Assembly: GCA_023267885.1 (NCBI GenBank)
Contig: JALNLB010000003.1
Coordinates: 12,792 to 76,791 of the forward strand
Origin: Candidatus Terraquivivens ruidianensis
GTDB lineage: Archaea > Thermoproteota > Nitrososphaeria_A > Caldarchaeales > Wolframiiraptoraceae
Length of the DNA stretch: 64,000 nt
Reading direction: 5' to 3'
Of the stretch, positions 2,636 to 60,395 are shown piece after piece; position 1 is the stretch's first letter, and every line of letters starts with the position of its first letter. The notes under the pieces are model-generated. The model searched no databases, had not been told where the DNA came from, and saw nothing but the letters and a program-made list of their open reading frames with translations. The translations under genes were made by a program, and so were the position numbers.

Positions 2636-3766
2636 TTAAGCCCATCCTTTCAAGACTGCACTCCAATATAGCTTTCCAACCAGCATCTTCGCATAATACC
2701 ACTTTCTGCTCAGCTTCGTCGGCTTTGGCGGGTTTTCGTAGTCGAAGACCATTGTTATGCCCTTCTTGAACCCTGCGTCGCAGAAGCATCGAACTTTACC
2801 ATCATAACGCCTTATTGTATCACTTCCCTTTATATCTGCCGCGATGTTTTCTGCCACGACCTTTGCTTCATAGTGGGCCGTGGCGCCCGCTTTCGATATC
2901 GGTATATCTGTAGCATCTCCGACAACATGAATATCATCGTAACCCTTTGCTCTGAGTGTATGCTTATCTGTCGGTATCCAGCCTCCCCTATTGCCCAGGC
3001 CCGAATCTTCTATTACTTTAGCGCCCCTATGGGGTGGGACAATTATCAGCAGGTCGTACTTTAGCGATTCACCCTCCAGCGAATGAACGAGCCTCTTCTC
3101 CGGCTCTATACGCTCTACGTTGAAAAGCTGTGTGTATTGGATGTCCTTTTTCTCCATAATCTCTTGGACTAGGGGTGCTACGGACTCCAGAGGGAAAACC
3201 CTCGGTAGAGGCGATAGGTAGTGGATCTCTATTTTGTGTCTAGAACCACGTTTCGTGAAGTAGTAATCGAGCTGACAGGCAGACTCCGCCGGTGCAGGTG
3301 GACATTTGTAGGGTATGCCGCCTATGCCAATCACAACCCTGCCGCCCGGAAAGCTATCGAGCGCCCTCCTCAGCCTTACTGAGGCATCAAGGTCGTAAAA
3401 GTGATGCGCGGCCTCGAAACCCGGCAACTCTTCAGGACACAACCTAGCACCTGTGGCCACGACCAAGTAATCGTAGCCCAAGATTCTGCCGGACTTTAAA
3501 CGGACTTTTCTATCGTCGGGCTTTATTAACGTAGCCTCGTCGATGATTAAGTCAACACGCCTATCGAGTAAGCGCCGTTCATCTCTGATCAAGTTCTCTG
3601 GCTTCTCGTCACCGAAGGCGACATAGATAAAACCCGGCTGGTAAACGTGTTTTCCTGTTGCGTCGACAAGCGTTATATTCACTTCGCTCGGAGAGACTTT
3701 TCTTGCTAGGACATTCGCTACTATCGTGCCACCTACTCCGCCGCCGAGTATCAGGACTTTCTTCAT
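2636..3766 (-). CDS. FAD-dependent pyridine nucleotide-disulfide oxidoreductase, sulfide:quinone oxidoreductase-like
   Basis: N-terminal GGGVGG Rossmann motif, 376 aa, and membership of the SQR/NDH-II family. Its neighbours are TusA and DsrE. Confidence 0.65.
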   Translation of the reverse strand: MKKVLILGGGVGGTIVANVLARKVSPSEVNITLVDATGKHVYQPGFIYVAFGDEKPENLIRDERRLLDRRVDLIIDEATLIKPDDRKVRLKSGRILGYDYLVVATGARLCPEELPGFEAAHHFYDLDASVRLRRALDSFPGGRVVIGIGGIPYKCPPAPAESACQLDYYFTKRGSRHKIEIHYLSPLPRVFPLESVAPLVQEIMEKKDIQYTQLFNVERIEPEKRLVHSLEGESLKYDLLIIVPPHRGAKVIEDSGLGNRGGWIPTDKHTLRAKGYDDIHVVGDATDIPISKAGATAHYEAKVVAENIAADIKGSDTIRRYDGKVRCFCDAGFKKGITMVFDYENPPKPTKLSRKWYYAKMLVGKLYWSAVLKGWA

Positions 3767-3768
3767 GG

Positions 3769-4011
3769 CTAACGTTTCTTCCGAACGATAAACTCTGCAT
3801 AGCCGTTACGGTCGAAAACCCCGATCAGCTCATGGCCAGCCTTCTCGACCCAGAGAGGTATATCACGCTTTGAGCCGCTGTCGGAAGAGTAAACACTGAC
3901 AACCTCGCCGACCTTAGCCTCCCTGATTGCCTTAATCAGCTCCATCAGAGGTCCTGGGCAGAAACTTCCTCTAGCATCGATTACCCTATCGACCTTAACG
4001 TCTTGGCTCAT
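3769..4011 (-). CDS. tusA: TusA-like sulfurtransferase
   Basis: 80 aa with the CPGP (CPxP) motif in ...[11 protein letters not shown]... Confidence 0.85.
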
Positions 4012-4029
4012 GCCGTTTCATCCCTCATC

Positions 4030-4458
4030 TTATATGAACAACGTTATCTTAGCATCCTTTGCTATATCGATGAACTCACCAACAGCTACGACATCGTCAA
4101 CGAAGTCCGCAAGGTCTTCTTTCTTCATCCCCATAAGGTCAAAGGTCATGGCGCATGCGTGCACCCTTACTTTTCCCAGCTCCTTTGCTTTCTTAAGTAT
4201 CTCGTACCATGGCTGGACGTTCTTCTGCTTCATCAGCTGCATCATGGCCTGGCCCATATCCTCAAAGTCCTTCGAGATTTTCATATTGGTGGTCAGCATA
4301 TCTTTCCTTAGCGCGTTTAAACCCCAGAAAGTCGCAAAGATGTCAACTTCCATACCCATCGCGACGGCACCGGAGGCGATTATGCTGACTGGGTAGAGCT
4401 TATCGACAGTTCCCGAGAAGAGCACTATGGCAAGTTTCTCTACCATCCAACTCACCAC
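4030..4458 (-). CDS. dsrE: DsrE/DsrF-like sulfur relay protein
   Basis: About 140 aa with the DsrE fold pattern IVLFSG...HACAMT. It lies in an operon with tusA. Confidence 0.75.
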   Translation of the reverse strand: MVSWMVEKLAIVLFSGTVDKLYPVSIIASGAVAMGMEVDIFATFWGLNALRKDMLTTNMKISKDFEDMGQAMMQLMKQKNVQPWYEILKKAKELGKVRVHACAMTFDLMGMKKEDLADFVDDVVAVGEFIDIAKDAKITLFI

Positions 4459-4529
4459 CTTAGTATATTCGAATATTATTATAATATATAAACCTTAACT
4501 CACTACATTGGGTTAAGGTATAACCCTGT

Positions 4530-4892
4530 TTATTGGAATACGTATCCGCAGAATGGACAGATGGTTGAACCCTGCTCGACTAGATGGTGGCAGCTCGGAC
4601 AGTGAAACGAAACAACTCTGTGTGGTTTTTCTGCAGGCTGCTTGACCTCCGGGAGTGGGTAGGGTATGGCTATCAACGTCTCTGTATGTATAACGTTTGG
4701 ATGCTTCTCGACAACCTCATATATGGTTTTTGATAGCTCCTCGAAATCTTTTGCGGCTAACACTAGGACAGCATCGTACCTGCCGAACACACTATGGGCC
4801 ATCTTAACGCCCTTGATCTTCCTAGAGGCTATGAGCTCATGCGATGTACCAGGAACAGTCCTGACCAAGACGAACGCTATAACGGGCATCAT
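4530..4892 (-). CDS. Stand-alone Lrp/AsnC ligand-binding (RAM) domain protein with a C-terminal Zn-ribbon
   Basis: RAM-like core (VLVRTVPGT...VFGRYDAVLVL) plus CPSCHH...CPFCG at the C-terminus. Confidence 0.6.
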   Translation of the reverse strand: MMPVIAFVLVRTVPGTSHELIASRKIKGVKMAHSVFGRYDAVLVLAAKDFEELSKTIYEVVEKHPNVIHTETLIAIPYPLPEVKQPAEKPHRVVSFHCPSCHHLVEQGSTICPFCGYVFQ

Positions 4893-5143
4893 TTCTCACT
4901 TTTGGAGCCAGTAAGCACTATAGCAGTCTCTGTATGAATCACGTTAGGAACCTTCTCGATTACCTTATAAACAACCTCACTCAATTTTTCTAAGCTCGGT
5001 ACTTCAACCACGACTATTGCATCAAACCTTCCAAAGACCGAGTCAGCTTGGACAACACCTTCGAGGCTGCCAACCTCTTTTATGTATTTCAGAACCTCCA
5101 TGGACGTGCCCGGCTTTGTCGTGAGCATCACATAAGCCCTCAA
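4889..5143 (-). CDS. Stand-alone Lrp/AsnC ligand-binding (RAM) domain protein
   Basis: 84 aa paralog of the downstream gene (VMLTTKPGT...VFGRFDAIVVV). It overlaps the next gene by 4 nt. Confidence 0.6.
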   Translation of the reverse strand: MRAYVMLTTKPGTSMEVLKYIKEVGSLEGVVQADSVFGRFDAIVVVEVPSLEKLSEVVYKVIEKVPNVIHTETAIVLTGSKSEK

Positions 5144-5207
5144 AACTTTTCACGACTAACCTTAAGCACAAAGTAGTATTTATGCGCTTTCTAGGTCTCG
5201 GTAAAAA

Positions 5208-5215
5208 TTATAAAT
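5208..5215 (+). promoter_or_regulatory. Candidate TATA box for the atpH-like/atpC transcript
   Basis: ttataaat lies about 29 nt upstream of the ATG at 5244. Confidence 0.35.
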
Positions 5216-5243
5216 CCCACAATCACCACTAAGTTGGCTTGAG

Positions 5244-5591
5244 ATGGCACTCGTGGACAAGGAAGGGTTCGAGAGCATCATCTCCCTGTTGGTAAACGTC
5301 GATAAAGAGCTGGACGAGTTGAGGGCATATGCCGAGAAGGCTAGGAGGGAAATCTTAGAGTTGGCCAAGAACGAAGTGGCCGTTGCTAAAGAGGAAGCGC
5401 TGAAGAGGGTGAGGACAGTAGCTGAGGAAATTATAAAACATGCCCAAGAAGAAGCCAAGGTTGAGGCGGAGAGAATAATAAAGAAGAATAAGGAGCTCTT
5501 GATGAAGCTAAAGGCAAATATGGAAGTTAGGCTTAGCGAGGCGATTCAGTTCACGATGGATGTGTTGCTGGGAAAGAAGGAAATAACATGA
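5244..5591 (+). CDS. atpH: A-type ATP synthase peripheral-stalk subunit (H/G-like coiled-coil protein)
   Basis: 115 aa, charged coiled coil (EEAKVEAERIIKKNKELL). It is translationally coupled (ATGA) to the subunit C gene. Confidence 0.5.
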   Translation: MALVDKEGFESIISLLVNVDKELDELRAYAEKARREILELAKNEVAVAKEEALKRVRTVAEEIIKHAQEEAKVEAERIIKKNKELLMKLKANMEVRLSEAIQFTMDVLLGKKEIT

Positions 5592-6637
5592 TGCTTCGAG
5601 ATTTGGGATACGTCGTAGGGAAGAGTTATGGCCTAAAGGGCAAATTGCTCCCGTACGCTACGCTGGAGGAGTTAGCCGGCTCCAAAAACCTCGAGGAGCT
5701 GGTCGAGAAGCTAAGGCCGACAGATTATGGTCCGTACGTATCTGGTCTCCCAAGACCGTTGAAGCCCACGAATATAGAGTTAGCGCTAAGAAGACACTTA
5801 GTCGAGGTTCACTTCGACCTAGCCATGAAATCAGAGAATGCTGGCATAATCCAGGCCTACTACATGAAATACTTGGCATCGAACCTCAAGACCATTCTAA
5901 AAGGCAAGGCCTTGGGCAAGGGCCACGAGGAGCTTTTGGAATTCGTTGACCTTAGGGCCGAGGAGCTAGTAAGAAGGAGGGATATGGTGGTAAGGGCTAT
6001 GGCAGCAAAGGACCTGGCAGAGGCCGTAAGATCATTGTCCGGAACGAAGTTTGGCGATGTGGCGGGCATGGCTATGGATCTTTACGAGAAAGAGAAGGAT
6101 CTAGTCGTCTTCGACGTAGCCATGGATAAGGCGTACTTCTCGGAGGTTCTGGGGGAGTTCAACAAGCTACGTTTCACGGAGCGTAAGAGGATCAGGCAGA
6201 TGGTGGCCGCCGACATAGACGGCTACACGGTATTGGCGATTATGAGGTCTAAATTGTGGAGGCTTACCGTCGCTGAGGCCAGACGCTTCTTGCTGGACAA
6301 AGCGATAAACATTCCGAGAGAAATTGTTGATATGATGCTCGAGGCCGAGAACGTGTCAGACATCCTATATATTTTAAAGGAAACTCCCTACAAAACCATG
6401 CTGCCTGAGCCGTCAGCACAGGATGCCGCCACGATAAGGTTACTCGAGGAAGCCTTCGAGAGGTTAGCCTTGAAGAAAGCATCGGATGCATTTTTGAGGG
6501 ATATATTCAGCGTCAGCATTCCCCTCGCACTCATTAGGCTCAAAGAGCTTGAAATAAGGAACGTGTCTATCATAACCGCGGGCGTCGATGGAGAGCTTGG
6601 CACCTCTAGAATACTTCAGAGGGTCGTGAAGCTTTAG
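5588..6637 (+). CDS. atpC: A-type ATP synthase subunit C (V0 d homolog)
   Basis: 349 aa alpha-helical protein in an operon with the stalk subunit. Its size and position fit AtpC. Confidence 0.6.
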   Translation: MMLRDLGYVVGKSYGLKGKLLPYATLEELAGSKNLEELVEKLRPTDYGPYVSGLPRPLKPTNIELALRRHLVEVHFDLAMKSENAGIIQAYYMKYLASNLKTILKGKALGKGHEELLEFVDLRAEELVRRRDMVVRAMAAKDLAEAVRSLSGTKFGDVAGMAMDLYEKEKDLVVFDVAMDKAYFSEVLGEFNKLRFTERKRIRQMVAADIDGYTVLAIMRSKLWRLTVAEARRFLLDKAINIPREIVDMMLEAENVSDILYILKETPYKTMLPEPSAQDAATIRLLEEAFERLALKKASDAFLRDIFSVSIPLALIRLKELEIRNVSIITAGVDGELGTSRILQRVVKL

Positions 6638-6918
6638 TAGAGTATTCTGAAGTCTTTAAACTCGCCCTTGTATTCATCCCACATAACATCTACCTTCTCT
6701 ACGATAGCATCCGGAGGTCCTTTGCGACACCACTCTATCATGGAAATGACTGCCTCCCTTTCGCCCTCGAAGACCGCCTCGACCCTGCCGTCAGGAATGT
6801 TCCTGACCCAGCCTTTCACGCCCAGCCTATCTGCCATCCTCTTTGTGTTGGACCTAAAGAATACGCCCTGTACGAGGCCGCTCACATATACATGGGCTCT
6901 GGCCTTCATACCGCTCAA
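6634..6918 (-). CDS. acyP: Acylphosphatase
   Basis: VQGVFFR and GWVRNxxDGRV motifs. Confidence 0.9.
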   Translation of the reverse strand: MSGMKARAHVYVSGLVQGVFFRSNTKRMADRLGVKGWVRNIPDGRVEAVFEGEREAVISMIEWCRKGPPDAIVEKVDVMWDEYKGEFKDFRILY

Positions 6919-14196: not shown

Positions 14197-14493
14197 ATGC
14201 GGGCAGTAGCCGTAGGTAGCAGGAGCTTCGTGCTGGGCTTCAGGCTTGCCGGCGTCAGAGGAGTTGAGGTCACCAATGCAAACGAGGCACTCTCTACAGT
14301 CAACAGGCTGATGAACGACCCAGAGATAGGGCTGATAATACTATCCGAAGAGCTGACATCCGAGATAAGAAACGAAATAAATGAGATAAGGACCAAAAAG
14401 CCTATGCCGCTCATATACGTATTACCCTCGTCCTCGACAGGCGCAAGGGATATGGACTATAGGTCTTTGCTCAGGCAAGTTTTAGGTATTTAG
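14197..14493 (+). CDS. atpF: A-type ATP synthase subunit F
   Basis: 98 aa, MRAVAVGSRSFVLGFRLAGV. Confidence 0.75.
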   Translation: MRAVAVGSRSFVLGFRLAGVRGVEVTNANEALSTVNRLMNDPEIGLIILSEELTSEIRNEINEIRTKKPMPLIYVLPSSSTGARDMDYRSLLRQVLGI

Positions 14494-14569
14494 GTGGGCA
14501 ATTTGACGAAAGGAAAAATAAATATATTGACTCAAAAAAGTGAAAACCAATTAATAGGTCGGTGAGCCC

Positions 14570-15421
14570 TTGACTTCTGTCATTTCTTTTCAGCATGCAC
14601 GAGGCGGCTCTGGCACTTCGCTCATTTCTATGATTAGCGCAAAGATCCTCTCAAGCTTTGGTAAGGTTGCTTTGCTGGAAATGGACTTCCTTAACCCTCT
14701 GCTACATCAAGTCTTTCCGCAAAAAACCTTGAAGGCACACGTTAACGACTTTATCTTTGGTGAGGCAAGCTTGGACGACGTGCTGGTAGACGTCGGACAA
14801 GAGGTTGATGCGAAGCCGAAGAATTTTTGGGTTGCTTACATGAATCCGCTTGAGGGCGCGAGGAAGAGGATGGAGTTTGCCGACGCTACACGGGATAAGC
14901 GGATAACTAAGACTTTTGAGAACGTTAGTTGGAGGGTCGAAGGCATGCCTTTAGACTTTGTTATGCTTGACATGGCACCGTGGAGTAACTACCTTAACGA
15001 CATAACATCCATAATATCGGATGTTGTATTCTTTATCATAAGGCCGAGCAGACTAGAGCTTACGTTGTTCCTCCATAGGTATGCAACGCAGCTCTCTCGT
15101 ATAATAGCGAAGGTTGTGCCCATAATCAACTTCTGCCCTTCGGATGACGAAGAATATGTCCAGATGATTATTAAGAGATTACAGGAGAATTGTCCAGAAT
15201 GTAAGAACGTTATCACCATACCGTATTACCAAGACCTTGCCTCGGGTCCAAGCAAGAAGCTAATCAAAGATTGCTCGCATCCTATATGCCGCGATTTAAG
15301 TAAAGCTATACTCAGTCCCGTCCCTAGAGAGAAGCCTTTTTTCAAAAACTCAAAAAACCATGAAACAAACGGACTAGTGGAAAGGTTGCAGGCTATCCAC
15401 TATCCTGAAAAAACTCCCTAA
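14570..15421 (+). CDS. ParA/MinD-fold (SIMIBI) P-loop protein with a degenerate Walker A motif
   Basis: It aligns to the deviant Walker A region (HARGGSGTS versus KGGxGKT), so both lysines are absent. The Walker B-like stretch FVMLDMAP is present. The track start is TTG. Confidence 0.55.
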   Translation: MTSVISFQHARGGSGTSLISMISAKILSSFGKVALLEMDFLNPLLHQVFPQKTLKAHVNDFIFGEASLDDVLVDVGQEVDAKPKNFWVAYMNPLEGARKRMEFADATRDKRITKTFENVSWRVEGMPLDFVMLDMAPWSNYLNDITSIISDVVFFIIRPSRLELTLFLHRYATQLSRIIAKVVPIINFCPSDDEEYVQMIIKRLQENCPECKNVITIPYYQDLASGPSKKLIKDCSHPICRDLSKAILSPVPREKPFFKNSKNHETNGLVERLQAIHYPEKTP

Positions 15422-15797
15422 AGTTTAGTATCCTGAGGGTCTCCGGCTCCGTTAGCTCTAGCCCATGGAGCACCCTTCCGAGCCTGTGGAGACCGTAGAA
15501 AACTTGTCTTACCGGTATGGGTTTAGGGAACTTCTCCATCGAATCAAAGTCTATCCTGAGTGTCCAACCCCTCCTTATGCACATCCTTATCTCCTCTTCC
15601 TCCATGTCCTTCAGGTGCACTACGTCCTTAATCCTTCCGTAACCCACGAATGAGTCCACGTTTTTCTTCATTATAAAGAAGACCATGCTTCCGGGCTCGA
15701 ACTTCCTCTTCAGGCCTGTGTAGTACCTCCTCTTGGAGAAGACATGCTCCTCGTTGTTTTCCCCGACAATCCTAAGGATGAAAGCGTTCGCCGTCAT
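15393..15797 (-). CDS. EVE/PUA-like domain protein
   Basis: 134 aa with an EVE-like core (GSMVFFIMKKN...FVGYGRIKDV). Confidence 0.5.
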   Translation of the reverse strand: MTANAFILRIVGENNEEHVFSKRRYYTGLKRKFEPGSMVFFIMKKNVDSFVGYGRIKDVVHLKDMEEEEIRMCIRRGWTLRIDFDSMEKFPKPIPVRQVFYGLHRLGRVLHGLELTEPETLRILNFREFFQDSG

Positions 15798-15933
15798 TTT
15801 TAATCAACGACTTTTTGTCTACTAATATTTAATGGAACTAATATACGTTCGGTAGCAAAGTGTTTTAGGTACGTTCAGAGACTTTATTCTAAGCCGTTTC
15901 CATGTGCTCGCTGAACGTAGTCTCCGGTACTGG

Positions 15934-15962
15934 TTCGCCTTTCCAGAAAATTTTTCTTATGA
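15934..15962. repeat. 29-bp direct repeat, left copy (TTCGCCTTTCCAGAAAATTTTTCTTATGA)
   Basis: A near-identical copy lies at 16531..16559. The two copies bracket the toxin-antitoxin cassette. Confidence 0.8.
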
Positions 15963-16035
15963 AGGTGGGTTCAAGCCTTAACCTTCAAAAACCTTATTAT
16001 GGAGCCTCACTAAAATGGAATTTTAGTGAAGTAAA

Positions 16036-16245
16036 GTGGTCAGAAGCTCCCTTTTAACGGACGACGACAGGGCCCTTCTCTTAAAGGTCAGCAACATGCT
16101 CGACGAGCTCTTGGAAACTCTTGGTGTCCTCGAGGATGAGGAGGTTATGAGGTCTATCGAGGAGGCCGAGGACGACGTCAAAGCTGGTAGGGTTAGAGGA
16201 TATGAGGAATTCATCGAGGAGCTGAAGAAGTCTGGAGAGATATGA
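16036..16245 (+). CDS. Type II antitoxin
   Basis: 69 aa acidic protein directly upstream of, and overlapping, a RelE/ParE toxin gene. Confidence 0.7.
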   Translation: MVRSSLLTDDDRALLLKVSNMLDELLETLGVLEDEEVMRSIEEAEDDVKAGRVRGYEEFIEELKKSGEI

Positions 16246-16297
16246 GCTTAAAGTTACCAAGTGTTTTGAAAAGGATTTCCGAAAACTTGACCCGCAG

Positions 16298-16489
16298 GTG
16301 AAAAGAAGGGTGGACTCGGCTATAAGAAGGCTTGGAGATGATCCCCGTCAAGGAAAACCCCTTAGGGGAGAGCTGTCTGGTAAATGGAGCCTAAGGGTTG
16401 GAGATTACAGGGTTATATACGTCGTAAACGAAGCAGAAAAGGCTGTCATACTCTACACAGTGAAGCATAGGAAGGTAGCGTACCGATGA
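16298..16489 (+). CDS. RelE/ParE-family toxin. The conserved N-terminus (YELKVTKCFEKDFRKLDP) is encoded upstream in frame without a canonical start, so this may be frameshifted.
   Basis: The C-terminal GDYRVIYVV...ILYTVKHRK is a RelE/ParE hallmark. The frame is open back to 16226. Confidence 0.65.
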   Translation: MKRRVDSAIRRLGDDPRQGKPLRGELSGKWSLRVGDYRVIYVVNEAEKAVILYTVKHRKVAYR

Positions 16490-16530
16490 ACGTATTCTTC
16501 GAACAAAAACGTTGTGGTTCTTGACGCTAT

Positions 16531-16559
16531 TTCGCCTTTCCAGAAAATTTTTCTTACGA
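16531..16559. repeat. 29-bp direct repeat, right copy (TTCGCCTTTCCAGAAAATTTTTCTTACGA)
   Basis: It matches 28 of 29 positions of 15934..15962. Confidence 0.8.
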
Positions 16560-16608
16560 TGACACTTTTGGAGCGCTCTCTATATATATAGCTGGTATTA
16601 GTTACGAA

Positions 16609-16632
16609 CACGGAAAAAATTTTTTTTCCGTG
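16609..16632. terminator. Perfect 24-bp palindrome CACGGAAAAAATTTTTTTTCCGTG between convergent genes, likely a bidirectional terminator
   Basis: It has a T8 tract on the + strand and a T6 tract on the - strand. It sits between the toxin 3' end at 16489 and the GT 3' end at 16687. Confidence 0.45.
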
Positions 16633-16686
16633 CAAGATGAACTAATCGTCCGAGGTGTTAAAGGAGTCTGGAGAGAACCTAACGCT

Positions 16687-19191
16687 TTAAGAGGGTAGCG
16701 CTCTGCTAAGGCTTGAAGCTCGGCTTTTTCGGTATGCTCTTCTGGCCAGAAGTAGCAGGAGTGCGAAAGGCAGGAATGCTAAAACGTTCTCGGGTATCAC
16801 GAGGTAGGTGTATTTGCCGGTATATCCCGTGTACATGGTTATAGGTACACGTACGACTCTAACACCTCCCGGTAATTCTTCTACTATAAATGACTGGTGT
16901 TGGAACCTGAGGTGTATGTAGCAGTTGGTACACGTCGGTAGGTTCACGGGCACGAAGACATCCTCCTCAAAGTCGCCATAATAAGTACCGCTGAAAGAAC
17001 CGCTTCCTATTTGTGTGCCCAAGTTGTTGGTATTGGGCGAGACATAAACCTCAACAGAACCTACCGTAGAGTCTGCCAACGAGTTCCCGGCGAAGTGGAA
17101 GACCCAAGTCCCATCGTCTGAATCTTGGAAGTTATAGGTTGACTCAGACCTCCAATAATAGTATGTAGATGAACTCAAACTTTGGGAACCGGATGGTTGG
17201 GTCGTACTCATCGTACCACTTCCTACTGTGGTGCCACCGTTGGGGTAAAGGTACAGGGTCTGATAAGGCACGTAGGCTTGAGCCTGCTGTATCGGCTGGA
17301 AGCTCACGAGAAGCATGAGCGACGTCGTCACGAATAATATGCCAGCCTTCCTCAACATGGAGGAATCTGGGCCGAACCTCGAACCGTAGAAGAGGAGCAC
17401 TCCCAAGCAAGCAGAAGCCAGGGCAGAGGCCGCATCGTAGAGCACAAGGGGCCCCATACCGAGGAGAAGCCTTAAGGGAATGTAGGAGGATACTACTGCC
17501 ACGACGCTGATGAGTAGCCTCGGCATCATGGCTCCGATTCGGATGCTTCGGCCCATCAGCCAAACGAGCGTGGCGATTCCCACGGATATGCTGGCCATCA
17601 AAATGGCGTACTCGGCCGGTTGTGGTATCCTGCTCCCTGACCCTTCGATGCTCGTCAGCAAGAGCTTAAGGAGGGCGTAGGCCAAGAAGGAGGATAGGAA
17701 CGATAGTATTGCGCAGGATACTATCCCTGACCTCTTCTTCATCGATTGCCTGCCCCTGAAGATTTTCCTGATGATGAACGCAAAGATGCCCTCGGTAATC
17801 TTTCCGGTCTTCAGCGTCCTGAACCAAGCAGACTCCTTTTTACTAAACAGCCCCTTGAGCGCAGCCATTGCCTGAAAGGTTGCCAAGACATGCATGAGCG
17901 GAATGAAGGTGAAAGCTCCCTTCCAATGCCTAGACGCCCTGTACTCTAAGTATAGACCAGTCAGGTTGACGAGTGGTATGGCCATCATGTTGGTGAGCAG
18001 TAGCGACCACCCGAAAATCGAGGTCCAGAACGGTATCTTCACCCTCAGGACTTCCGCAACCAACCATACGACCGTCCCAAGGATGAGGAACAAGCTGCTG
18101 AGGTAGTATGGGGATAGGTAGAGAAACTCCAGCTTCTCCCTCAACGATAAGAACTTGCTCCTAAGTATCTCCATGAAATAACGCTTCACAGCAAAGGTGT
18201 GGCCTTCAGCCCATCTTGCCCTCTGCCTAATCAGCGACATAAGGGTGGCGGGGCACTCGGCGGGCGCAGCTGCCAGCTGAGTGTACTTGACCTTGTAACC
18301 GTCCCGATAAAGCCTGAGCGTCAAGTCCCAGTCCTCCGTCAGGCTGTCCCTCCAGCCATACTGGCGTAGTATGTCGGCCCTTATCATGAAGACGCTACCT
18401 GATATCATACGCATACCCAGCATCAAATCGTTCACGAGCAACCTCTCAACCAAGTAGTTGCCCGCGTACTCGGCGCTCACGGCCTTCGTTATCCAGTTCT
18501 CGGAAGCGTTCAGGACGTGCCACTGGTAACCTTGAACTACAACGATCTCCCTAGAGCTGTACAGCTCGTCTAACATCTTACGTATGCCTCTGCCGTTCAG
18601 TTGACCGTTCTCGTATCCGTTACCGAATTCGTTAAGTAGCCTCTGGATTATGTCCTTTGGTGGTATGAAGTCTGCATCGAATACAACGACGTACTCCGCC
18701 TCATCGCTCATGAACTTGAGCGCCTCACGTAGCGCTCCACCTTTGAAGCCGCTCCTACTCTTCCTGTGGATTATCTTCACGCGCGGGTCTTTTTCATAGC
18801 GTCTCAATATGGTGGGCGTCGAGTCGGTCGAGTCGTCCACGACGATGACCTCGTATTTCGGGTAGTCCAAGGAAAGGAGAGCTTCCATGAGCCTCGCCGC
18901 AACCTTCTCTTCGTTGTAGAGGGGTATGTGGATACTCACCATCGGATAGTAGCCGTTACCTAAGGGGTCGGTAGTGCCGCCGTTCGTGTTGTGCCCGTTG
19001 TGCCTTAACTTTATACCGCCGTTCGTGTGGAATTTGTTGTTTCCGTTACCGTTGTTTCCATTCCTCTTGAAAAGTATGTAGGCCGTATATGCCAGCGCTA
19101 GATAGTACCTTATCGCGTACGTAAAGAAGAGTAAGCCGAATGCCAGGCTGAAGTACGGTAGTAGCTCAAGCACCTGCAACGCTATCGCCAC
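16687..19191 (-). CDS. Membrane-embedded processive family-2 glycosyltransferase (cellulose/chitin-synthase-like, QxxRW) with a C-terminal extracellular Ser/Thr-rich domain and a PEP/PGF-CTERM-like sorting signal
   Basis: DDSTD, DAD and QRARW motifs, multiple TM segments, and a C-terminal IPENVLAFLPFALLLLLARRAYRKSR tail. Confidence 0.8.
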   Translation of the reverse strand: MAIALQVLELLPYFSLAFGLLFFTYAIRYYLALAYTAYILFKRNGNNGNGNNKFHTNGGIKLRHNGHNTNGGTTDPLGNGYYPMVSIHIPLYNEEKVAARLMEALLSLDYPKYEVIVVDDSTDSTPTILRRYEKDPRVKIIHRKSRSGFKGGALREALKFMSDEAEYVVVFDADFIPPKDIIQRLLNEFGNGYENGQLNGRGIRKMLDELYSSREIVVVQGYQWHVLNASENWITKAVSAEYAGNYLVERLLVNDLMLGMRMISGSVFMIRADILRQYGWRDSLTEDWDLTLRLYRDGYKVKYTQLAAAPAECPATLMSLIRQRARWAEGHTFAVKRYFMEILRSKFLSLREKLEFLYLSPYYLSSLFLILGTVVWLVAEVLRVKIPFWTSIFGWSLLLTNMMAIPLVNLTGLYLEYRASRHWKGAFTFIPLMHVLATFQAMAALKGLFSKKESAWFRTLKTGKITEGIFAFIIRKIFRGRQSMKKRSGIVSCAILSFLSSFLAYALLKLLLTSIEGSGSRIPQPAEYAILMASISVGIATLVWLMGRSIRIGAMMPRLLISVVAVVSSYIPLRLLLGMGPLVLYDAASALASACLGVLLFYGSRFGPDSSMLRKAGILFVTTSLMLLVSFQPIQQAQAYVPYQTLYLYPNGGTTVGSGTMSTTQPSGSQSLSSSTYYYWRSESTYNFQDSDDGTWVFHFAGNSLADSTVGSVEVYVSPNTNNLGTQIGSGSFSGTYYGDFEEDVFVPVNLPTCTNCYIHLRFQHQSFIVEELPGGVRVVRVPITMYTGYTGKYTYLVIPENVLAFLPFALLLLLARRAYRKSRASSLSRALPS

Positions 19192-19726
19192 CAGTGCGCG
19201 TGCTGATGAACCAGAAGAGCATGAGCCAGCCGAACGTGACGAAGCTACCGAAATAGTCGTGGAATATTATGGCCGGACCTTTTCCAACGTATACGGCTAT
19301 GAGAGCTACGAGGGCTATCCTAAGTATGTTTACTAGGATTGTTCCCTGAAGGCCTACCAAGGTCGTCGTGAGCTTTCCGAGAAGGGATGAGGACGATTCC
19401 TTAAGGACGAGGTAGGATATGGCCGAGAATATCACGATGCTCTGCCAGCCTATGCAGTTCCAAGCTATGTACAGGGCAATTGCTCCGCCCGGCGCATTTA
19501 GGTAAACGATGGGGCCCGACAGCGTAGCCTCGAGCCCGAAAAGGGCCAGCATGGATGCCGTGAAGCGTGCCACGAGCGGAGCGATGTACGTCTCTATAAA
19601 CCACCATAGGCCGATCGACTTTATAATCTCCGTGAGAAACTCGTTAAAGGTGATGTAAAAAGGCATGATTATAAGGGTAAACGACGCGGCTATGAGAAGT
19701 ACGGCGTAGCCCCTTTCTTCCCTCAA
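19166..19726 (-). CDS. Exosortase/archaeosortase-family protein (small, 186 aa)
   Basis: Polytopic membrane protein with a Cys (WNCIGWQS) and an Arg (NILRIAL) about 47 residues apart, as in the exosortase core. It overlaps the GT gene start by 26 nt. Confidence 0.55.
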   Translation of the reverse strand: MREERGYAVLLIAASFTLIIMPFYITFNEFLTEIIKSIGLWWFIETYIAPLVARFTASMLALFGLEATLSGPIVYLNAPGGAIALYIAWNCIGWQSIVIFSAISYLVLKESSSSLLGKLTTTLVGLQGTILVNILRIALVALIAVYVGKGPAIIFHDYFGSFVTFGWLMLFWFISTRTGGDSVAGA

Positions 19727-19866
19727 CGCCGTTTAGCTCCGTGTTTTTAATACTTAAAAATAAATTTTTCCCTTATATAGTTATGTTAGGAAAAGCATCG
19801 GCCCTTATCACGTCTGACGTAGCAATTTATATATTCCGAAACAAGGCAACTAATGCCTGAAAGTGT

Positions 19867-20469
19867 ATGTCGGATGCTTTGGATAAAGTTCTCAAAAAGG
19901 TCGCTGAGGAGACCATGATGGAGTGCTTTTCTTTGTTGGACTCTGCCGAGAAGGATGCCATGGTGCTTTTGGATAGTGAAATGCGTGAGGCCAGCAGCGA
20001 GGCTGTGGAAATAATCGAATCGGCCAAGAGGCAGGCCGAGCTGGAGAGGTCTAGGATACTTAGCGTAGCAGAGGTTGAGGCTAGGAATGAGATGCTCATA
20101 CTCGTCGAGGAATACGTCAACATGGTCATAGAGCGTGCCATGGAAAAGCTGAGGCATACTCCAACCATGCCGGATTACAGGGATGCGATGAAAAAGCTAC
20201 TCCTCGAGGGCCTGAACGCTGTAGGAAGCGACGTAAAGGTATGGACGAATGCAAGGAGCATAGGCCTGCTGAGGGAGCTGGCCGAAGAGGTCTCTACGAG
20301 CACGGGCTTTAAGGTATATGTGGACGATGAAGCAATAGACTGCATAGCTGGCTTAAAGGTTAGCAGCTTGGACGGAAAGAGGGTCTTCGACAACACAGTC
20401 GAGGGAAGGCTGAGGCGCCTAAGGCCGGTCCTTAGAAGGGAAGTTGCCAAGCTGCTGGCCATCGAATAA
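19867..20469 (+). CDS. atpE: A-type ATP synthase subunit E
   Basis: 200 aa, directly upstream of atpA. Confidence 0.8.
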   Translation: MSDALDKVLKKVAEETMMECFSLLDSAEKDAMVLLDSEMREASSEAVEIIESAKRQAELERSRILSVAEVEARNEMLILVEEYVNMVIERAMEKLRHTPTMPDYRDAMKKLLLEGLNAVGSDVKVWTNARSIGLLRELAEEVSTSTGFKVYVDDEAIDCIAGLKVSSLDGKRVFDNTVEGRLRRLRPVLRREVAKLLAIE

Positions 20470-24740: not shown

Positions 24741-24847
24741 GGGGCCGTGGTCTAGCGGTATGACGCGCTCGCATAAGGCCGCCCTCACGGCACCTCGATA
24801 TGGCTGGGAAACGGCGGAGGTCGTGGGTTCGAACCCCACCGGCCCCA
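24741..24847 (+). tRNA. tRNA-Val(CAC) with two introns (about 13 nt in the D/anticodon junction region and about 23 nt in the anticodon loop)
   Basis: Acceptor GGGGCCG/CGGCCCC, anticodon stem CCGCC/GGCGG, loop CUCACG.., T-arm GTGGGTTCGAACCCCAC. CCA is not encoded. Confidence 0.75.
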
Positions 24848-47099: not shown

Positions 47100-47175
47100 G
47101 GGCCGGTGGTCTAGCGGCTATGACGCTGCCCTTACGAGGCAGAGGTCGTGGGTTCGAGTCCCACCCGGCCCACCA
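47100..47175 (+). tRNA. tRNA-Val(UAC), intron-less. CCA is encoded.
   Basis: Canonical cloverleaf with anticodon loop CUUACGA. Confidence 0.85.
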
Positions 47176-47710: not shown

Positions 47711-48343
47711 TCATCGCATGTATGAGGCTATCAAAGTAATCCCGCGTCTTTCCGCCTCCTTACTTGCTGAAGGATGTATGAGGTAGCCGAACATCAATTT
47801 GTATGCTGGCATGCCGAGATAATTCTCAATAATCTTCACCTTTCGGTCAAACTCCTCGACGTCCCTGCCGTATATTCTTGACCTAACCTCTCCTACAACC
47901 TTAACCGTCTCGCCGTTTTTCTTGCCGTCGCCGTAGAGGTCAACCTGTACCTCCTCACCATCTATAACAAAAAATGTCCTACCGACCTCGACCTCTATGC
48001 CCTCATGTCTATAAAGCCAGCCGGGGACAACGACCTGTGCTATATCCTCAAGCCCGAAGCCAATAACCTCTGATAACTTGCCTACCTGAACCGCAAGCTC
48101 TTTTAGCGCCGCATCTGTCCTCTGCTGAGCCTCAGCAAGCCTTGCCACCGCATCCTCCAGCCTCCCAACCCTTTCCTCTGTCCTCTGCTGAGCCTCAGCA
48201 AGCCTTGCCACCGCATCCTCCAGCCTCGTGCTCGACCTCCTCAAATCTTCCATTCCTAGCATTCCGGCTACGGCATACCTGAATTCTTCGTCTTCTCTTA
48301 GTAACCTGATGAACTTCTTTTTTGTCTGGCTACTTACGGACAT
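47711..48343 (-). CDS. Coiled-coil protein with a C-terminal PD-(D/E)xK-like/DUF3782-like domain. It contains an internal 21-aa tandem repeat.
   Basis: RLEDAVARLAEAQQRT appears twice, encoded by a 63-bp tandem duplication. Confidence 0.45.
   Translation of the reverse strand: MSVSSQTKKKFIRLLREDEEFRYAVAGMLGMEDLRRSSTRLEDAVARLAEAQQRTEERVGRLEDAVARLAEAQQRTDAALKELAVQVGKLSEVIGFGLEDIAQVVVPGWLYRHEGIEVEVGRTFFVIDGEEVQVDLYGDGKKNGETVKVVGEVRSRIYGRDVEEFDRKVKIIENYLGMPAYKLMFGYLIHPSASKEAERRGITLIASYMR
48113..48226. repeat. Tandem direct repeat, two copies of a 51-bp core with period 63 bp
   Basis: tctgtcctctgctgagcctcagcaagccttgccaccgcatcctccagcctc at 48113 and again at 48176. Confidence 0.85.
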
Positions 48344-60005: not shown

Positions 60006-60395
60006 GTGCGTTTAATGGATGCATGCCCTGTCCTTAAATTGTTGAGGAGCATTAGGGTGAGGGCTATCAGGCATGGAACTTATTACAGGAATCTAACCAG
60101 CATAGAGAGGGCTATAACCGAGCTGTCTATTAGATGTAGGATAAAGTTCAGGAGCTTTAGGCTTCTTATGGTAATTGCGAGGATAATCGTCAAGCTACGT
60201 AAGTACACGCCCATATCCTTTTTCGACAGAATTCTATCGTTGGGAAAGGAGCTTGTCAAAAAGGTTTCGCTAATAGCCTATAGCTGGGGTAACGTGTCCG
60301 CCCTGTCTTGGATAGAAGACAGGACTTTTGTCGTTTACTTAGGCATGATGGTGCTCCAAAGGCCGTTCTCAATGTTGATTACCAACTACGCATAA
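60006..60395 (+). CDS. Hypothetical basic protein (may be a gene fragment)
   Basis: 129 aa, R/K/I/L-rich, with no recognisable motif. Confidence 0.25.
   Translation: MRLMDACPVLKLLRSIRVRAIRHGTYYRNLTSIERAITELSIRCRIKFRSFRLLMVIARIIVKLRKYTPISFFDRILSLGKELVKKVSLIAYSWGNVSALSWIEDRTFVVYLGMMVLQRPFSMLITNYA

Follow-up and report, generated by a model that had tools for sequence, protein, structure and literature searches.

A RelE/ParE-family toxin–antitoxin module bracketed by 29-bp direct repeats in Candidatus Terraquivivens ruidianensis

In the integrative and conjugative element (ICE) families of streptococci, the CIME-type (cis-mobilizable) elements are integrase-less remnants bounded by att sites, and the attC sites of integron gene cassettes are at least about 55 bp long. 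In archaea, the att sites of integrated elements range from 8 bp to more than 25 bp (median 17) in Thaumarchaeota and from 29 to 69 bp in Crenarchaeota; an intergenic target is used by 15 of 68 thaumarchaeal integrated elements, the smallest of those described measures 2.6 kb and carries an integrase, and a VapBC toxin–antitoxin (TA) pair has been noted in one (PMC6563490). The dif modules of Acinetobacter are small gene modules, TA pairs included, that are bounded by 28-bp XerC/D sites (PMC6449649, PMC13141974). The dif site consists of two 11-bp imperfect inverted arms around a spacer of about 6 bp, 28 bp in all, and Thaumarchaea are reported to be without XerA (PMC2958812). Here we describe a RelE/ParE-family TA module bracketed by two copies of a 29-bp direct repeat in a 64,000-nt stretch of the hot-spring archaeon Candidatus Terraquivivens ruidianensis, which belongs to an Aigarchaeota/Nitrososphaerota lineage (NCBI GenBank assembly GCA_023267885.1, contig JALNLB010000003.1, positions 12,792 to 76,791 of the forward strand), which is called the window below. 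We read the two copies, with a probability of about one half, as the junction scars of a single recombinational insertion.

The direct repeat and the module it encloses

The 29-mer TTCGCCTTTCCAGAAAATTTTTCTTA(T/C)GA lies on the plus strand at 15934–15962 and again at 16531–16559, the two copies being 597 bp apart from start to start and identical at 28 of 29 positions, as the initial annotation had reported. The left copy, TTCGCCTTTCCAGAAAATTTTTCTTATGA, has its first 26 nt in common with the right copy, which ends in CTTACGA. The sole mismatch is T versus C at repeat position 27, so that identity is exact over 26 nt. The right copy lies 42 nt past the toxin stop codon, within the 3′ untranslated stretch and ahead of a hairpin and T-run. 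In line with the same annotation, the copies bracket the antitoxin and toxin genes alone, together with 73 bp upstream and 41 bp downstream. The enclosed 568-bp segment (15963–16530, plus strand) is a self-contained TA module with a promoter-like box, a palindrome, two genes and a 41-bp tail; it holds the TA pair only, with no integrase inside. Its RelE/ParE identity is confirmed by matches of the toxin to PF05016 (45.4 bits, cutoff 23; expect value (E) 1.2e-11) and to TIGR02385 RelE_StbE (29.6 bits, cutoff 27.9), and the toxin also matches the RelE-like toxin phrog_1213 at E 4.8e-21.

The repeat is unique in the window and its ends are sharp. At up to three mismatches, the 29-mer has exactly two matches in the 64 kb against 0.00 expected from 100 dinucleotide-preserving shuffles, and blastn, run in the local search space, still gives E 9e-11. 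Two metagenome-assembled genomes at NCBI (GCA_038850335.1 and GCA_038870235.1) and the Logan contig SRR27730043, which are 99.85–99.98% identical to the window, contain the two copies, the T/C difference included. Because both copies recur in these three independent assemblies, the repeat pair is not an assembly artefact and is fixed in the species. A chance resemblance would have the AT-rich core of the motif alone in its favour, and the shuffle counts, the E value and the three assemblies effectively refute chance and artefact alike. The 70–80 nt adjacent to the copies, in gapped alignment, score no better than shuffled sequence (scores reached by 126 of 500 and 133 of 500 shuffles), and a longer gapped repeat extending into the flanks was rejected, since flank similarity equals that of the shuffled controls. 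The window has other repeats of 20 nt or more, but these consist of paralogous coding segments or of the 3′ halves of tRNAs, and the 29-mer is the only intergenic direct pair. We also rejected the 29-mer as a coding remnant (FAFPENFSY in one frame, in which the T/C difference is synonymous), as no open reading frame (ORF) or homolog backs this reading, which makes too much of a single mismatch. A further Logan contig, SRR27730040 (100% identical, with its position 1 at window 15950), was considered as a sign of filled and empty sites in the population and set aside as uninformative. It breaks 17 nt into the left repeat, away from the expected branch point, and the repeat length gives no explanation for the break, the Logan k-mer length being 31 and thus longer than the 26-nt repeat.

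The initial annotation had also raised the idea that the 29-mer marks other cassettes or belongs to an att-like family or a family of miniature inverted-repeat transposable elements (MITEs). This idea was not supported: the 64 kb contain only the two copies, and none was found elsewhere in the sequences searched. Specifically, no further copy at up to seven substitutions is present in the window and 16 further loci (165 kb in total), and an exact scan for the 22-nt core CCTTTCCAGAAAATTTTTCTTA returned 0 matches in genome, metagenome and viral contigs, collections in which the source species is evidently not included. Plasmid and phage databases and viral contigs yielded no match to the region and no related cassette. 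Nor is the 29-mer, within the 64-kb window, the common genome-wide motif that the same annotation had named as the alternative. Known classes of repeat-bounded elements were rejected as well. A transposon, insertion sequence or MITE does not fit a segment with no terminal inverted repeats, a 29-bp repeat (versus a target duplication of 2–15 bp) and one cassette copy; a casposon architecture was rejected on repeat scans and reading of the sequence; and two copies 597 bp apart are not a CRISPR array, which needs at least three repeats with spacers of about 25–50 bp and of which the window has none.

Origin of the module

The module sits in the spacer between a gene for a PUA-like protein (15393–15797, minus strand) and a glycosyltransferase gene (16687–19191, minus strand), and it is missing at the syntenic position in every available relative. 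Homologs of the PUA-like protein are either 100% identical or at most 77% identical, with nothing between; the nearest relatives stand at about 76% amino acid and about 81% nucleotide identity, and none closer than about 81% at the nucleotide level was found. With the PUA-like neighbour as query, the genome contigs collection gave no relative, and an alignment-based search of metagenome contigs gave one 52%-identical locus with different synteny. Four states are seen upstream of the PUA-like gene. In GCA_033581195.1 (L005/L006), the glycosyltransferase gene is followed by a 112-bp spacer and then the PUA-like gene, and the same order with a 251-bp spacer is found in JGI 3300005800 (L009); the upstream neighbour of the PUA-like gene is the ATPase E-subunit gene (atpE) in L007 and a partial, unrelated ORF in L008; and in the window, the TA module and the glycosyltransferase gene are found. 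The 72-aa ORF of L008 was considered as an integrase N-terminus and rejected, having no family match and no homolog. None of L005/L006, L007, L008 and L009 has TA genes at this position, and tblastn detects no TA relic there. The module is thus an indel relative to all available relatives, and this comparison of gene orders would most simply point to a gain, by insertion, in the lineage of the window. Removal of the cassette and one repeat from the window leaves a 292-bp spacer, which is close to the 251 bp of L009. As to the empty sites in relatives that the initial annotation had envisaged, relatives without the cassette do exist, but their spacers are unalignable with that of the window and show no recognisable 29-mer, either by MAFFT or by sensitive blastn against the reconstructed empty site.

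In the most likely reading, the two copies are the junction scars of one recombinational insertion of cassette-bearing DNA at a shared sequence of about 26 bp. Since L005/L006 and L009 do not have the module at the syntenic position, the most parsimonious account is an insertion whose junctions were duplicated; the length of the repeat, 26–29 bp, which is within the reported size range of archaeal att sites, also counts for it, as do the documented use of intergenic targets and the variability of the site in the lineage. We propose that the spacer between the PUA-like and glycosyltransferase genes received a horizontally acquired RelE/RelB-type TA module in one insertion event. The DNA carrying it would have recombined with the chromosome at the shared sequence, leaving one copy on each side in the manner of attL and attR. 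The route may have been of the Campbell type, with a tyrosine recombinase acting in trans at an att-like site, or recombination through short homology; position 27, where the copies differ (T/C), would then be either the limit of the shared segment or the site of a later mutation. A precise deletion of the module could still occur if the two repeats recombined. Of the mobilisation of the TA module that had been suggested in the initial annotation, insertion is the part that is favoured, with repeats that bracket the module and relatives without it; neither a recombinase within about 10 kb nor a repeat family in the sequences searched was found. The locus looks like a one-off insertion scar and like no member of a recognisable mobile-element family; we regard it as a TA module that was gained by insertion and whose junction repeats are unusually clean.

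Several observations weigh against this insertion. No second instance of the 29-mer occurs in any collection searched. Around the homologous cassettes of L010, L011 and L012, neither the 29-mer nor convincing comparable flanking repeats are found, and no integrase, transposase or other recombinase is present among the called genes and Pfam matches within about 10 kb on each side. The segment measures 0.57 kb, compared with the 2.6-kb minimum of the described thaumarchaeal elements, and its GC content of 0.463 is within the normal range of the window (mean 0.495, standard deviation 0.04). The spacers of the relatives are so diverged that a gain and a clean loss are inseparable at the nucleotide level. 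Additionally, a stretch of the right flank resembles the antitoxin gene, which hints at a less simple history. This 26-nt stretch (16651–16676, plus strand), which is non-coding and lies 11 nt from the glycosyltransferase stop, matches the 3′ end of the antitoxin gene (16215–16240, encoding EELKKSGE) at 22 of 26 positions. A second cassette, earlier or duplicated, may have decayed and left it as a relic, and if so, the 29-mer could be a boundary sequence borne by the cassette rather than a duplicated target.

The main rival starts from this stretch. It takes the 29-mer to be the cassette's own 5′ boundary and not a target duplication: either two related cassettes once stood head to tail, or a new cassette entered what was left of an old one by homologous recombination, and the downstream unit would have decayed to the right 29-mer (16531–16559) and the antitoxin 3′ fragment at 16651–16676. 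The antitoxin-end match is collinear with the 29-mer (order A1-B1-A2-B2) and is significant in a small search space, with 0 of 300 shuffles as good under strict scoring and E 8e-4 locally; the mismatch rates of the two matches, 1/29 and 4/26, come from a sample too small to be told apart by eye; and TA genes are stacked in tandem in islands of related archaea (L010 and L012). On the other hand, the 91 nt that separate the antitoxin-like stretch from the right 29-mer show no significant similarity to the cassette (336 of 400 shuffles reach the score), the spacing differs (120 versus 281 nt), a second toxin has left no trace, the whole right flank compared with the cassette under looser scoring is marginal (7 of 400 shuffles), and a purine-rich stretch coding for E and K is compositionally easy to match, which leaves this history doubtful. 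Alternatively, a larger integrase-bearing element may have entered at a 29-bp att site and been reduced by internal deletions to an addictive TA pair, as in CIME-like remnants. Integrated elements typically carry TA modules, and these resist loss, which counts for such a remnant. Direct repeats of att length do flank the module, and a thaumarchaeal element holds a VapBC pair (PMC6563490). At least two deletions would be needed, however, ending 73 bp and 41 bp from the TA genes and sparing both att copies, and neither pseudogene debris in the 568 bp nor an integrase relic among the genes nearby (about 10 kb) is seen; we consider this reduction unlikely.

A further alternative makes the 29-mer a cis-acting element that is present twice, for example a protein-binding site, a terminator or a promoter element, and is kept by selection or gene conversion. 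Inside the 29-mer, a short dyad, AGAAAA-T-TTTTCT, and a T5 run can be read, which could contribute to archaeal termination; the left copy stands between two divergent promoters, and both copies are invariant across strains. That invariance is uninformative, because the strains differ by merely 0.02–0.15%. The copies occupy non-equivalent positions, one 5′ of a promoter and the other in a 3′ untranslated region; no other gene in the 64 kb carries the element; and it is not conserved beside homologous TA pairs or orthologous flanking genes. The initial annotation had placed the left copy in a shared divergent promoter region, where it might double as an operator. In fact 30 nt separate its end from the TATA-like box of the TA module and 44 nt separate it from the palindrome, and the TATA-like box of the PUA-like gene is about 100 nt away. 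The left copy overlaps neither promoter, so that the operator proposal is unsupported, and the cassette has a much better palindrome of its own. A cis-acting role is, in our judgement, quite unlikely. Finally, the 0.6-kb unit of cassette plus one 29-mer might itself be mobile as a minimal TA cassette without a recombinase of its own, relying on a host-encoded or element-encoded recombinase that recognises the 26–29-bp site and acts in trans; 16651–16676 would then be what remains of a cassette that docked at this site earlier. If true, integron cassettes or Acinetobacter dif modules would have an archaeal counterpart in such a trans-mobilised unit; we hold it to be very improbable.

Anatomy and surroundings of the module

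Upstream of the antitoxin start by 36–49 nt, an A-run with a TATA-like box, AAAAACCTTATTAT, can be read at 15987–16000 (plus strand), the box itself being at 15993–16000. Similar boxes are found 30–45 nt upstream of other genes of the window, such as GAAAAACCTTATAAG before the ORF at 60006, and we infer that the box is the promoter of the cassette, from which the antitoxin gene and the overlapping toxin gene would be driven. A perfect 10-bp inverted repeat, TCACTAAAAT-gga-ATTTTAGTGA, follows at 16007–16029, between the TATA-like box and the start codon, and is likely the autoregulatory operator of the TA operon. Judging by family membership and this anatomy, the module is expected to act as a standard autoregulated RelBE-type system, in which the antitoxin, alone or in complex, would repress through the palindrome and the toxin would be an mRNA interferase. 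The antitoxin ORF (16036–16245, plus strand) encodes 69 aa from a GTG start and overlaps the toxin frame by 14 nt. It has no match at meaningful E values in Pfam, NCBIfam or PHROG; in L010 and L011, the toxin homologs likewise follow homologous ORFs of 70 aa, and the antitoxin–toxin pairing is therefore conserved. In the interval 15300–17000, no Rfam family is matched, and C/D-box RNA motifs were dismissed as unconvincing on reading of the sequence.

The toxin gene (16232–16489, plus strand) has 85 codons from a CTG at 16232, which is the NCBI start; the frame is also given from 16244 to 16489. It is the only RelE-like ORF in the window, and the protein is on record solely in the present genomic context. 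In the full-length toxin frame, no ATG, GTG or TTG precedes an internal GTG at 16298, from which 63 aa would be made. The CTG start, 14 nt inside the 3′ end of the antitoxin gene (…AAGTCTGGRGARATAT…), is kept in L010 and L011 (3990–4030 in each) at 65–69% amino acid identity, and many toxin homologs in the databases are called at 59–63 aa from an internal start. This pattern suggests either non-canonical initiation throughout the subfamily or termination–reinitiation coupling, by which translation of the toxin would depend on that of the antitoxin.

The closest toxin homologs, 65–69% identical in amino acids, lie in L010, L011 and L012, and these loci match the window at about 71% nucleotide identity across the coding region alone (window 16051–16473). 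In L010 (GCA_014361085.1), a TA island at positions 3800–6650 packs four small toxin/antitoxin-like pairs into 3 kb, and an AT-rich 18-nt direct repeat (16 of 18 identical; 5919–5936 and 6630–6647), which may be due to chance, surrounds a ParE pair. In L012 (JGI 3300045889), a gene of about 540 bp occurs three times (490–1035, 2982–3527 and 4821–5411) in alternation with different TA pairs (HEPN, ParE, MNT/HepT and PIN/MazE). Its product of 180–195 aa has an acylphosphatase profile match and internal 33-nt repeats, and two of the copies are 99–100% identical. By its gene order, L012 can be described as a TA array bracketed by whole-gene direct repeats.

The left neighbour, transcribed divergently from the TA operon, encodes a 134-aa protein and has its own TATA-like box about 30–40 nt upstream of its ATG (near 15826–15835). 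The initial annotation had called it an EVE gene. This label stands at the level of the fold, since the predicted structure is PUA-like of the ASCH/YTH/EVE kind (AlphaFold model with a predicted local distance difference test score of 82; Foldseek E 3.5e-5 to ZmASCH, 5y6b), and not at the level of the family, as the protein matches none in Pfam, NCBIfam or PHROG. Only six homolog clusters of the PUA-like protein occur among 5.8 billion proteins, all of them from the same archaeal lineage. The right neighbour, convergent with the TA operon, encodes a family-2 glycosyltransferase of 828–834 aa. Between this gene and the TA operon, outside the repeat-bounded segment, a perfect hairpin, CACGGAAAAAA-TT-TTTTTTCCGTG, lies at 16609–16632 with T-runs on both strands and is probably a bidirectional terminator.

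The surrounding sequence has further features. The region 14197–20469 corresponds to the atpF–atpE gap, a variable spot inside the otherwise conserved A/V-type ATPase gene cluster: in L007, the gap contains the PUA-like gene only, and L005 adds an archaeosortase-like gene, the glycosyltransferase gene and a gene for a 237-aa protein. Between strains that are otherwise 99.85% identical, 24 of the 31 differences, indels included, fall within about 95 nt at 17034–17128. By this clustering, the stretch, which encodes a C-terminal, non-catalytic part of the glycosyltransferase, appears as a local hypervariable patch or a recombination tract. A 107-nt tRNA at 24741–24847 (Rfam, 43.7 bits), missed by ARAGORN, presumably contains an intron, and its 3′ half resembles that of the tRNA-Val at 47100–47175. 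At 48114–48227, a perfect 51-nt direct duplication with 63-nt spacing overlaps the minus-strand ORF 47711–48343.

Comparison with described systems

Actual junctions are poorly documented for the spread of type II TA modules between archaeal chromosomes, and the locus is a clean example. In its present state it is a single insertion scar, valuable chiefly for annotation; further instances or an excised form, if found, would suggest that archaea have a small cassette system mobilised in trans. As a TA module, the locus agrees with RelBE/ParDE type II operons in the profile matches of its toxin, in its small overlapping upstream antitoxin, in the palindrome between promoter and start codon, and in its patchy distribution of the horizontally transferred kind. 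It differs from them in an antitoxin that belongs to no curated family and in a toxin frame without a canonical start, a trait shared by the homologs at 65–69% identity.

With the attL/attR-bounded elements of Thaumarchaeota and Crenarchaeota, the segment has in common flanking direct repeats of 26–29 bp, DNA that is missing from relatives and an intergenic target; unlike them, it has no integrase and is a single instance, and the available relatives are too diverged to show an empty site at the nucleotide level. Like CIME-type remnants, it consists of att-like repeats around a short cargo without a recombination module, but here no parent element is known and there is no evidence of accretion or of mobilisation in cis. 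The integron hypothesis fails on the repeat itself: the 29-mer is short for an attC site, has no GTT on either strand (the core being GTTRRRY) and contains only a 6-bp AT dyad where attC has the extended R″/L″–L′/R′ dyad, and there is no IntI gene nearby and no cassette array in the window. A dif/Xer module was likewise rejected, as the arms of the 29-mer are complementary at 4 of 11 positions, or at 6–7 of 11 when flanks are included, and shuffles reach a mean of 6.4 and a maximum of 9. Moreover, the sites of dif modules are usually inversely oriented and multi-copy. What the locus shares with Acinetobacter dif modules is a small recombinase-less module, often a TA pair, between sites of about 28 bp, and with integron gene cassettes, among them those with TA genes in archaeal integrons and chromosomal superintegrons, one small cassette that lies between repeated recombination sites and is in some cases a TA pair under its own promoter. 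By analogy only, the module of Ca. T. ruidianensis can be likened to CIME remnants, dif modules and integron TA cassettes.

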